The notes below the pieces were generated by a model that saw only the letters and a program-made list of their open reading frames with translations, ran no database searches and had not been told where the DNA came from. 36,968 nucleotides of DNA from a virus. Lineage: Duplodnaviria > Heunggongvirae > Uroviricota > Caudoviricetes. Within the stretch, counting starts at the first letter, position 1. Every line of letters starts with the position of its first letter. Position numbers and translations under genes: made by a program. Of this stretch, positions 9,386-13,412 are shown in pieces. The DNA is taken from positions 1 to 36,968 of the IMG/VR virus record IMGVR_UViG_2737471838_000003. One strand, 5' to 3'.

Positions 9386-11877
9386 CGTCCACCTCCGGAG
9401 AACAGGCCACCATCACGCATCTGTGTCTGAATTTCATCACGGGCACCCTTGCGGGCCATGTCATACACCGCCTTCAGCATCTGTGGACCTGGCAGACCAT
9501 TCGTACCGTCGTTCTGAATCACCACGTTGTTGTTCTGCTCAAATCTGATACCTTCTGAACGCCGCATCTGCGCCGGACTTCCGGTGCCACCGACATAACC
9601 GCCGGTGGCATAGCCGCGCATCAGCCGGTAGAGATTCCCCACGCCAATCCGGCTGGTTGCCTCCTTCGTGAAGACAAATTCACCACGGTGAACAATCCCC
9701 GCTGGCTCATATTTGCCGCCAGTTCCCGTAAATCCTCCGGTTGCAAAATGGAATTTCGCCGCAGCGGCCTGAATGGCTGTACCGCCTGACGCGGATGCGC
9801 CGCCACCAACAGCACCGCCAATGGCGCTGCCGATACTCCCGACAATCCCCACCATTGCCTGCTTAAGCAGAATTTCTGTCATCATGGACAGCACGGAACG
9901 GGTGAAGCTGCGCCAGTTCTGCTCACTGCCGGTCAGCATCGCCGCCATATTCTGTGCAATACCATCAAAGGTCTGCGTGGCTGCACTTTTTACCTGCGAC
10001 ATACTGTCCGTGGCGCTCTCTTCCCACTCACTCCAGCCGGACTTCAGGCCTGCCATCCAGTTCCCGCGAAGCTGGTCTTCAGCCGCCCAGGTCTTTTTCT
10101 GCTCTGACATGACGTTATTCAGCGCCAGCGGATTATCGCCATACTGTTCCTTCAGGCGCTGTTCCGTGGCTTCCCGTTCTGCCTGCCGGTCAGTCAGCCC
10201 CCGGCTTTTCGCATCAATGGCGGCCCGTTTTGCCCGTTGCTGCTGTGCGAATTTATCCGCCTGCTGCGCCAGCGCGTTCAGGCGCTCCTGATACGTAACC
10301 TTGTCGCCAAGTGCAGCCAGCTGGCGTTTGTACTCCAGCGTCTCATCTTTATGCGCCAGCAGGGATTTCTCCTGTGCAGACAGCTGGCGACGTTGCGCCG
10401 CCTCCTCCAGTACCGCGAACTGACTCTCCGCCTTCCACAAATCCCGGCGCTGCTGGCTGATTTTCTCATTTGCTCCGGCATGCTTCTCCAGCGTCCGGAG
10501 TTCAGCCTGAAGCGTCAGCAGGGCAGCATGAGCACTGTCTTCCTGACGATCGCCCGCAGACACCTTCACGCCGGACTGTTTCGGCTTTTTCAGCGTCGCT
10601 TCATAGTCCTTTTTCGCCGCCGCCATCAGCGTGTTGTAATCTGCCTGCAGAATTTTCCCATCCTTCAGTGCCTTGTTCAGTTCTTCCTGACGGGCGGTAT
10701 ATTTCTCCAGCGGCGTCTGCAGCCGTTCGTAAGCCTTCTGCGCCTCTTCGGTATATTTCAGCCGTGACGCTTCAGTATCGCTCTGCTGCTGCGCATTTTT
10801 GTCCTGTTGACTCTGCTGTTCAGCCTTCTTTCTCGCGGCTTCAAGCGCAAGACGGGCCTTTTCACGATCATCCCAGTAACGCGCCCGCGCTTCATCGTTA
10901 ACAAAATAATCATCCTTGCGCAGACTCCAGATGTCGTCCGCTTTCTTAAACGCAGCCTCTGCCTTAATCAGCATCTCCTGCGCGGTATCAGGACGACCAA
11001 TATCCAGCACCGCATCCCACATGGATTTGAATGCCCGCGCTGTCCTGTCTGCCCAGGTCTCCAGCGTACCCATGTTCTCTTTCAGGCGGCGGGTCTGGTC
11101 ATCAAACCCTTTCGTCGCGGCCTCGTTCGCCGCCTGCAATGCCCCGGCTTCATCGCCGGAACGCTGCAACTGAGCAACATACGCAATCTGCTCCGCCGTC
11201 ACGTTATGGAACTGGCGTGCCATCGCTGTCAGCCCTGACGTCGGGTCTGTGGTCAGCTTCCCGAAGGCTTCAGCGACCTTGTCCACCTCCACGCCGGATG
11301 CAGAGGAGAAACGCGCCACACTCTGGCTGATGGATGCAATCTGAGCCTCACCGCTTACTCCCGCCTTAACCAGTGCGCTGAGTGACTCGCTGGTCTGGTT
11401 AAACGTCAGCCCTGCCGCCTGCCCGGCTCTGGACAGGACCAGCATGCGATCTGCCGTCAGACCCGACTGATTGCCGGAAAGGACCAGCGTTTTGTTGAAA
11501 TCGGACAGGGTTGAGTTGCCCTGATACCAGGCATACGCCAGCGCACCGGTCGCCACCGCCAGCGAGGTGGCCCCGACCATCGGCAGGGTGATCGCACCGG
11601 CAAGCCCCCTGAACATGGGGATCATCCCGCCGAAGGAGTCCTTAACCTGACCACCCTGTTGCAGCAGGATCAGCCACGGACTTTGCCCGCCTGCAAGCTG
11701 CGTGGCCACGTCGGTGAACTGTGCAGGCAGCATACGCATGGCGGCTTTATACTGCCCGACGGAAATCCCCGCTTTCTGTGCAGCCAGCGCCTGTCGGCTC
11801 AGCGACTGTTCAACGACTGCCGCTGTTTTTTTCGCATCACTTTCCGTACCGGAAAAATGACGCCTGACTCTGGCCAT
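9382..11877 (-). CDS. H: Tail tape measure protein H, N-terminally truncated at the A-H deletion junction (likely non-functional)
   Basis: 831 aa collinear with lambda gpH from about residue 23 (MARVRRHFSGTESDAKKTAAVVEQSLSRQALAAQKAG...); upstream DLVVDLSLDAARFDEQ codons persist but abut the A stop. Confidence 0.85.
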   Translation of the reverse strand: MARVRRHFSGTESDAKKTAAVVEQSLSRQALAAQKAGISVGQYKAAMRMLPAQFTDVATQLAGGQSPWLILLQQGGQVKDSFGGMIPMFRGLAGAITLPMVGATSLAVATGALAYAWYQGNSTLSDFNKTLVLSGNQSGLTADRMLVLSRAGQAAGLTFNQTSESLSALVKAGVSGEAQIASISQSVARFSSASGVEVDKVAEAFGKLTTDPTSGLTAMARQFHNVTAEQIAYVAQLQRSGDEAGALQAANEAATKGFDDQTRRLKENMGTLETWADRTARAFKSMWDAVLDIGRPDTAQEMLIKAEAAFKKADDIWSLRKDDYFVNDEARARYWDDREKARLALEAARKKAEQQSQQDKNAQQQSDTEASRLKYTEEAQKAYERLQTPLEKYTARQEELNKALKDGKILQADYNTLMAAAKKDYEATLKKPKQSGVKVSAGDRQEDSAHAALLTLQAELRTLEKHAGANEKISQQRRDLWKAESQFAVLEEAAQRRQLSAQEKSLLAHKDETLEYKRQLAALGDKVTYQERLNALAQQADKFAQQQRAKRAAIDAKSRGLTDRQAEREATEQRLKEQYGDNPLALNNVMSEQKKTWAAEDQLRGNWMAGLKSGWSEWEESATDSMSQVKSAATQTFDGIAQNMAAMLTGSEQNWRSFTRSVLSMMTEILLKQAMVGIVGSIGSAIGGAVGGGASASGGTAIQAAAAKFHFATGGFTGTGGKYEPAGIVHRGEFVFTKEATSRIGVGNLYRLMRGYATGGYVGGTGSPAQMRRSEGIRFEQNNNVVIQNDGTNGLPGPQMLKAVYDMARKGARDEIQTQMRDGGLFSGGGR

Positions 11878-11927
11878 CTGCTCGTCAAATCTGGCCGCAT
11901 CCAGACTTAAATCAACGACCAGATCGC

Positions 11928-13412
11928 CTAGACGGATGCCCCTTTAATGGGGATCACCCGGAACAGCCCATGTTTTTTCGAGCGTTCATACACAATGGTC
12001 GGGTCAATCCCGCCAGTATCCCAGCAGATACGGGATATCGACATTTCTGCACCATTCCGGCGGGTATAGGTTTTATTGATGGCCTCATCCACACGCAGCA
12101 GCGTCTGTTCATCGTCGTGGCGGCCCATAATAATCTGCCGGTCAATCAGCCAGCTTTCCTCACCCGGCCCCCATCCCCATACGCGCATTTCGTAGCGGTC
12201 CAGCTGGGAGTCGATACCGGCGGTCAGGTAAGCCACACGGTCAGGAACGGGCGCTGAATAATGCTCTTTCCGCTCTGCCATCACTTCAGCATCCGGACGT
12301 TCGCCAATTTTCGCCTCCCACGTCTCACCGAGCGTGGTGTTTACGAAGGTTTTACGTTTTCCCGTATCCCCTTTCGTTTTCATCCAGTCTTTGACAATCT
12401 GCACCCAGGTGGTGAACGGGCTGTACGCTGTCCAGATGTGAAAGGTCACACTGTCAGGTGGCTCAATCTCTTCACCGGATGACGAAAACCAGAGAATGCC
12501 ATCACGGGTCCAGATCCCGGTCTTTTCGCAGATATAACGGGCATCAGTAAAGTCCAGCTCCTGCTGGCGGATGACGCAGGCATTATGCTCGCAGAGATAA
12601 AACACGCTGGAGGGGTCATCCGGCGTCCATTTGAGGCCAAACGGCGTCTCTTTGTCGCCAAATTTAAGATACTGCTCCTCCCCGCAATGCGGGCAGGCAA
12701 CATGAAAACGCATAAAATGCGGGGATTCACTGGCTGCACGCTCAATCTGACAGGTGCCTCTCACTTTTGGCGTGGAGCCACGGATGGACTTTGGCCAGAC
12801 CGAGCCTTCAATACGCTTGTCACCCAGGAACGTCGAAGAGCCTTCCTGTTCAATATCATCATCAAAAGCAGCAAGTTCATCATAACCCGCCACATCCACC
12901 GACTTTTCACGGTAGTTTTTTGCCGCTTTACCGCCCAGGCACCAGAAGCCACGCCCATTAGTGAAACGCTTCATGGTGAGCGTGTTATCCCGGTGCTTTT
13001 TGCCATACCACGGGGCCAGCGCCAGCAGCGACGGAATATCACGAATAGTCGGCTCAACGTGGGTTTTCATAAAGTTCTCGGCATCACCATCCGTCGGCAA
13101 CCAGATAAGGGTGTTGCGCTGCTTATGCTCTATAAAGTAGGCATAAACACCCAGCAGCATTTTGGAATAACCGACACGGGCAGACTTCACCACATTCACC
13201 TCACGGATGTAGTCGCTGCCCATCGCATTCATGATGGCCCGCTGAAAGGGCAGTGTTTCCCAGCGCCCTTCCTGGTATGCGGATTCTTTCGGGAGATAGT
13301 AATTAGCATCCGCCCATTCAACGGCGGTCTGTGGCTCCGGCCTGAACAGTGAGCGAAGCCCGGCGCGGACAAAATGCCGCAGCCTGTTAACCTGACTGTT
13401 CGATATATTCAC
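11928..13412 (-). CDS. A: Terminase large subunit A, C-terminally truncated (494 aa versus about 641 in lambda)
   Basis: MNISNSQVNRLRHFVRAGLRSLFRPEPQTAVEWADANYYLPKESAYQEGRW... matches lambda gpA through ...RVIPIKGASV, then an immediate stop at the deletion junction. Confidence 0.9.
   Translation of the reverse strand: MNISNSQVNRLRHFVRAGLRSLFRPEPQTAVEWADANYYLPKESAYQEGRWETLPFQRAIMNAMGSDYIREVNVVKSARVGYSKMLLGVYAYFIEHKQRNTLIWLPTDGDAENFMKTHVEPTIRDIPSLLALAPWYGKKHRDNTLTMKRFTNGRGFWCLGGKAAKNYREKSVDVAGYDELAAFDDDIEQEGSSTFLGDKRIEGSVWPKSIRGSTPKVRGTCQIERAASESPHFMRFHVACPHCGEEQYLKFGDKETPFGLKWTPDDPSSVFYLCEHNACVIRQQELDFTDARYICEKTGIWTRDGILWFSSSGEEIEPPDSVTFHIWTAYSPFTTWVQIVKDWMKTKGDTGKRKTFVNTTLGETWEAKIGERPDAEVMAERKEHYSAPVPDRVAYLTAGIDSQLDRYEMRVWGWGPGEESWLIDRQIIMGRHDDEQTLLRVDEAINKTYTRRNGAEMSISRICWDTGGIDPTIVYERSKKHGLFRVIPIKGASV

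Follow-up and report, generated by a model that had tools for sequence, protein, structure and literature searches.

Sequence evidence for a late-operon deletion joining terminase gene A to tape measure gene H in a Rac-type prophage of Escherichia coli

In the tailed-phage record IMGVR_UViG_2737471838_000003 of IMG/VR (positions 1 to 36,968; the window, here, is this whole stretch of 36,968 nucleotides), a shortened gene for the terminase large subunit, A, runs straight into the tape measure gene, H, of a lambda-like late operon. How did these two genes become neighbours, and what can the prophage that carries them still do? With high confidence, we attribute the arrangement to one spontaneous deletion in a Rac-type lambdoid prophage, which lost 8,360 bp of its late operon and is now defective, inherited and eroding further. 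The argument turns on three features of the window:

11928-13412, minus strand: truncated terminase large subunit gene A (A'), codons 1-494 of 641, ending ...FRVIPIKGASV and a stop
11928-11931, minus strand: the A-H deletion junction, placed by the ends of the blastn blocks and by aligning the lambda and C41 parental sequences to the window
9382-11930, minus strand: remnant of tape measure gene H, codons 5-853, with an open reading frame of 831 amino acids at 9382-11877 that starts at Met23

Anatomy of the A-H junction

The lambda genome NC_001416, with its annotation, served as the reference, and the window was searched by blastn with lambda DNA and by tblastn with lambda proteins. We found two collinear blocks, both on the minus strand. 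One aligns window 11929-14121 with lambda 2194-1 (2,194 nt, 99.27% identity, E = 0), and the other aligns window 5294-11930 with lambda 17191-10555 (6,644 nt, 96.4% identity, E = 0). Because these alignments are so long and so nearly identical, a chance match is excluded. The first block holds cos, Nu1 and A codons 1-494, and the second holds H from codon 5, M, L, K, I and J codons 1-562. The blocks share two bases, window 11929-11930, and the breakpoint is 11929/11930, with A-derived DNA to 11929 and H-derived DNA from 11930. A sequence-only reading of this DNA had placed a deletion junction within 11860-11960, as is borne out here; the pairwise alignment that it proposed, to lambda and to the closest intact lambdoid relative, mapped the breakpoint and a microhomology, TA.

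On the coding strand, the A parent reads ...GGGGCATCCGTCTA before the breakpoint and CGGAAAGCC after it, the H parent reads ...GGCTGAACCGGTA before and GGCGATCTGG after, and the window reads ...GGGGCATCCGTCTAGGCGATCTGG across the junction. The only exact bases common to both parents at this point are TA, and there are zero added bases. The stop codon of A, TAG at 11930-11928, is made by the junction itself: its T and A are common to the A codon for Tyr495 (TAC) and the H codon for Val5 (GTA), and its G comes from the H codon for Gly6 (GGC). Hence, the 20-nt spacer that had been described between A and H does not exist, since H-derived DNA starts within the stop codon of A.

The parental alignment showed no insertion sequence (IS), repeat or filler sequence at the junction. 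A search for longer homology at the breakpoint yielded TA alone, with a gapped CCG..TA resemblance before it; the deletion passed over a better match, CCGGTnGGC (8 of 9), situated 10 nt downstream on the A side. Scans around the junction found no promoter-like site and one weak terminator-like site, at the level expected by chance. The cut falls inside gpA 491-GASVYGKP-498, which we take to be a P-loop-like motif; a literature search for gpA K497 yielded nothing in the collection searched. The deletion joined A codon 494 to H codon 5 at the 2-nt match TA, probably by illegitimate recombination, that is, by replication slippage or by end-joining at very short or no homology, and not by an IS-mediated or site-specific event.

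Genes lost and genes left

The missing DNA is lambda nt 2195-10554, or 8,360 bp, which corrects an earlier figure of about 10 kb. It held A codons 495-641, W, B, C/Nu3, D, E, FI, FII, Z, U, V, G, T and H codons 1-4; that is, the C-terminus of A, the head, head-tail connector, tail tube and tail chaperone genes, and the translation start of H. All lambda proteins from Nu1 to Lom were searched by tblastn over the whole 36,968 bases: Nu1, A (residues 1-494), H (residues 5-853), M, L, K, I and J (residues 1-562) gave matches, whereas W, B, C, D, E, FI, FII, Z, U, V, G, T and Lom gave none. Together with the lambda annotation, these searches agree with the gene list of the sequence-only reading, which had named W, B, C, Nu3, D, E, FI, FII, Z, U, V, G and T as missing.

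On the A side, gpA residues 1-494 match window 13412-11931 at 99.8% identity to lambda (tblastn), in keeping with the claim that A is collinear with lambda gpA as far as ...IPIKGASV. The ATPase domain of A' is complete (PF05876, GpA_ATPase, residues 47-285, profile positions 3-237 of 247, E = 6e-50), and a profile search gave it the same extent as in lambda gpA. The nuclease domain is incomplete (PF20454, GpA_nuclease), with profile positions 2-177 of 294 matched versus 2-286 in lambda gpA. The C-terminal 147 residues of gpA (495-641) are gone from A', including the coiled-coil helix and the portal-binding tether; in lambda TerL, the C-terminal domain comprises the endonuclease centre, the coiled-coil helix and the portal-binding tether (PMC9026076).

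On the H side, gpH residues 5-853 match window 11931-9385 at 97.2% identity to lambda (tblastn), and the remnant keeps both TMP_2 (PF06791, E = 1e-69) and Tape_meas_lam_C (PF09718, E = 2e-21). The strong Shine-Dalgarno sequence of lambda H, AGGAGG, and its ATG (nt about 10527-10544) lie inside the deleted DNA. The H frame differs from the A frame and meets a TAA five codons upstream of the junction, and the earliest ATG, GTG or TTG in it is lambda Met23, at window 11877, where the open reading frame begins MARVRRHFSG.... The earlier statement that H is out of frame with A and could restart only at an internal Met is thereby upheld.

Some public annotations (L005, 11476-14031; L007, 10418-12973) give H as 851 amino acids, with a 10-nt overlap with the end of A. 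By its coordinates, such a call would require an ATC start three codons upstream of the junction, and it probably reflects a homology-driven choice by the annotator.

The flanking genes of the late operon that remain are as follows; M, L, K and I fall within a range of 95-98% identity to lambda:

14110-14121, minus strand: cosN, 12-nt cohesive end GGGCGGCGACCT, lambda nt 1-12
13387-13932, minus strand: Nu1, terminase small subunit, full length, 181 amino acids, 97.8% identical to lambda
9056-9385, minus strand: M, tail tip, full length
8358-9056, minus strand: L, tail tip, full length
7610-8209, minus strand: K, tail tip, full length
7041-7712, minus strand: I, tail tip, full length

From this gene content, the element by itself would be expected to perform no cos cutting and no portal docking and to form no heads, head-tail connectors or tail tubes; the sequence-only reading had likewise held that it could not build capsids or tail tubes, and that conclusion follows from the genes present. 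Given the roles of the lambda genes, little or no H protein would be made and no receptor-binding J. Particle formation has therefore probably been lost: at most the prophage would excise, replicate and lyse its host, and its transfer would require a helper.

An intact relative and a second deletion

The closest relative is a prophage of E. coli C41 (NZ_CP127252), which occupies the same chromosomal site and is 99.1-100% identical to the window. In it, A (1,926 nt) and H (2,562 nt) are full length, and the whole W-to-T block lies between them. We sought a functional relative in which full-length A and H stand in the arrangement of the window, and C41, with W to T in between, does not refute the deletion. 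The flanks of the window are 99.9-100% identical to C41 and A is 99.9% identical. Judged by this relative, the A-H arrangement is a deletion and not an alternative gene order.

Lambdoid genomes are mosaics, and the block from H to J is 99.14% identical to C41 versus 99.9-100% for the flanks, so that a junction formed by module exchange between two phages had to be weighed. The distribution of the mismatches refutes it: all 57 lie between window positions 5317 and 7044, with 56 of them in J and the other at the end of I, and window 7045-11930, which spans H, M, L, K and most of I, has zero mismatches to C41 from 7045 to the junction. Because H, M, L and K are free of mismatches and the differences are confined to 5317-7044, one and the same phage supplied both sides of the junction. 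Moreover, module exchange keeps gene sets complete, whereas here 13 essential genes are gone and both genes at the junction are truncated. We consider mosaic recombination scarcely credible.

The C41 prophage is itself lesioned, with an IS3-family insertion (8439-9616 of its locus, L002) between J and the side tail fibre gene, stf, which is annotated as partial. An IS-mediated adjacent deletion was considered as the source of the A-H junction and rejected, as neither IS nor filler is found at the junction and the IS3 of C41, between J and stf, is absent from the window.

The window carries a second deletion, between J and stf, which the sequence-only reading did not mention:

5294-5302, minus strand: second deletion junction, from J codon 562 to about 44 codons into stf, out of frame
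5172-6980, minus strand: truncated J, codons 1-562 of 1132, then about 40 out-of-frame codons into side-tail-fibre DNA
2818-5299, minus strand: side tail fibre gene, N-terminally truncated, with a Pfam phage_tail_N match from profile position 44

The second junction has a 6-nt microhomology, TGAAGC. The deletion removed the receptor-binding end of J, lom and the start of stf, and it measures 3,162 bp relative to C41, a figure that counts the IS3 of C41. Most relatives with the A-H junction also have this J-stf junction.

Carriers of the junction and their further erosion

The A-H joining was absent from 50,697 phage records and from 5,426 complete E. coli genomes, and an exact 36-mer over the junction had no match in GTDB species representatives or IMG/VR. 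Carriers were traced instead by exact-protein look-up of the 494-amino-acid product in draft, metagenome and Logan assemblies. We found this exact product in 31 index blocks and read 24 contigs; the protein collection records it on 17 contigs, under NCBI accessions such as EEV5912805.1. Ten loci were fetched, drawn from NCBI drafts, from assemblies of ENA and Logan and from a single metagenome scaffold, and all ten have the same junction with the same parental coordinates.

These loci bear on whether the junction is an assembly artefact, that is, a chimeric contig of A and H from different lambdoid prophages. E. coli genomes do hold several near-identical lambdoid A and H genes (median 2 matching places, maximum 10), and the lack of the junction among the complete genomes also points that way. 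However, the ten loci come from different projects and assemblers, on contigs of up to 265 kb; the overlap is only 2 nt, whereas assembler chimeras arise at repeats of k-mer length; and the flanks on both sides are continuous with the C41-type prophage backbone. Because one junction recurs in ten independent assemblies, we exclude an artefact, to which we give very little credence. Since the junctions are identical and the flanks nearly so, they probably stem from one event that was passed down to a set of E. coli strains.

Relatives with this A-H junction have lost further late genes behind it. L006 and L009 have a deletion from H to J, and L011 has an H to J deletion unlike theirs; L007 is deleted from M to J, L008 from I to stf with a second gap, and L013 from K to stf. 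Most of this set (L006-L009, L011 and L013) retain the J-stf junction as well. In E. coli ZYB62 (NZ_CP074366), whose flanks are 100% identical, an independent deletion joins A codon 393 in frame to J codon ~646, and the fusion (L003, 8489-11128) is an 879-amino-acid coding sequence annotated as 'terminase gpA endonuclease subunit'. The morphogenesis region of this prophage lineage is lost repeatedly and piecemeal, and nested deletions in the carrier strains are now removing the tail-tip genes that the primary deletion stranded. The carriers form a small, clean, natural erosion series, with one primary deletion followed by at least five different nested deletions of stranded tail genes, and this series could calibrate rates and mechanisms of prophage decay.

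No observation contradicts the deletion. Four points do limit parts of our account: the probable loss of particles is read from gene content; an overlap of 2 nt does not separate slippage from topoisomerase-type or end-joining events; the probable single origin is drawn from identical junctions and near-identical flanks; and a co-resident prophage could complement the lost functions, as is reported for the defective prophages of E. coli O157 (PMC2669165).

The prophage and its known counterparts

Window 27200-36968 matches C41 at 99.98%, from ydaV via kilR, recE, recT, ralR and xisR to the intR stop. In C41 the intR stop adjoins ttcA, which itself lies outside the window, and in the relatives C41 and ZYB62 the other prophage end adjoins uspF, ompN and nifJ (ydbK). 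The window begins just within the boundary on the uspF side and ends at the intR stop; it covers ~37 kb, which is ~76% of the length of lambda. By its ttcA site, its intR/xisR pair and its recET-kilR early region, the element is identified as a Rac-type prophage of E. coli. Going by the C41 annotation, its backbone is present (intR, xisR, recET, kilR, ydaV, holins, endolysin and bor), and with that backbone kept and its virion assembly genes missing, it is classed by gene content as a defective (cryptic) lambdoid prophage. Its other features are these:

247-1455, minus strand: YadA-like family protein gene, at the uspF-proximal end, beyond the tail fibre genes
15927-17134, minus strand, and 15316-15609, plus strand: non-lambda lysis module, with a GH108 endolysin with PG_binding_3 and two holin-family genes, and, between it and cos, bor and a DUF1398 gene
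17687-17762, minus strand: tRNA-Arg, anticodon TCT, upstream of the lysis genes
22487-24742, minus strand: S8 peptidase, IetS model (PADLOC), E = 1e-270
24780-26000, minus strand: AAA ATPase, IetA model (PADLOC), E = 2e-131

The IetAS anti-phage defence pair sits between the replication and late-regulation regions. The tRNA gene stands where lambdoid prophages commonly have one. The YadA-like gene at 247-1455 had no PADLOC match and may be cargo.

Is the remnant maintained by selection, whether as a mobile element that bears cos and depends on a helper or as a module that interferes with lambda-like phages? On this view, cos, Nu1 and A' would titrate or misdirect the terminase of such phages on superinfection, or would allow a helper to package the element along with its IetAS genes. 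In favour, the element retains cosN, Nu1 at full length and the part of A for Nu1 binding and ATPase activity, with 98-99.8% protein identity to lambda; synteny with C41 suggests that the int, xis, replication and lysis genes are intact; and the IetA/IetS pair is on board. Defective prophages of O157 can, moreover, be packaged and transferred with co-resident help (PMC2669165). Against this, no evidence of selection was seen, recent ancestry alone explains the near-identity to the intact relative, sister strains are visibly losing the downstream tail genes, and ZYB62 independently lost more of A. The late genes would also be expressed only after induction. The usual lower packaging limit is ~78% of the length of lambda, and the window, at ~76%, is at or below it. 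We therefore regard selection on the remnant as highly improbable. A more specific version has A (1-494) acting as a dominant-negative terminase subunit against incoming phages, or cos-mediated mobilisation of the element by a helper together with the IetAS genes; nothing in this analysis supports either, and we hold both to be quite unlikely. If the former were true, then once induction or superinfection by a lambda-type phage switched on the late operon, A', with its Nu1-binding and ATPase parts but neither a full nuclease nor a portal tether, could disturb packaging.

The simple deletion remains our preferred account, and it describes ordinary prophage decay: a lambdoid prophage with an internal deletion is a textbook object. 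This kind of object is already known and its proteins are already in public databases, and so it opens no new biology. NCBI lists the 494-amino-acid product as an ordinary 'phage terminase large subunit family protein', and together the calls of a 494-amino-acid A and an 851-amino-acid H conceal that the prophage cannot, by its gene content, make particles. Completeness tools that count terminase and tape measure would overrate this prophage.

Phage-inducible chromosomal islands (PICIs) are dedicated satellites of ~10-15 kb that encode redirecting proteins (Rpp) and have no terminase or tail genes. Identity as a PICI or other satellite was considered and rejected, as this element spans ~37 kb, is 99-100% collinear with an intact prophage bar two deletions, and has leftover tail genes. 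What it has in common with the PICIs that use lambda-type cos packaging (PMC9026076) is a cos site and capsids that would come from a helper.

The defective prophages of O157 Sakai (Asadulghani et al. 2009, PMC2669165) are a closer likeness: they too are lambdoid, have deletions or defects in morphogenetic genes, and live in genomes with other lambdoid prophages. Experiment showed that they are inducible, and some were packaged or transferred, with the help of co-resident prophages (PMC2669165); the present element is not known to do anything of this sort.

Compared with the lambda operon (NC_001416, nt 1-19,000), the element is collinear, with 96-99% DNA identity over cos-Nu1-A (1-494) and H (5)-J (1-562). 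It differs in being without nt 2195-10554, the C-terminus of J, lom and the start of stf, and neither its lysis module (GH108 endolysin and other holins) nor its early region is that of lambda.

The cryptic Rac prophage of E. coli K-12, the nearest named relative, resembles this element, as do Rac-like prophages at ttcA, in its integration neighbourhood (ttcA; uspF, ompN, nifJ) and in its early region (intR, xisR, ralR, recT, recE, kilR, ydaT and ydaV), and both are defective through lost morphogenesis genes. In K-12, Rac has lost nearly the entire late region, whereas this element retains cos, Nu1, most of A, H, M, L, K, I, part of J, stf and the lysis genes. Hence, with more late genes left than in the Rac of K-12, it stands at an earlier point in decay, and its scar is sharply defined.

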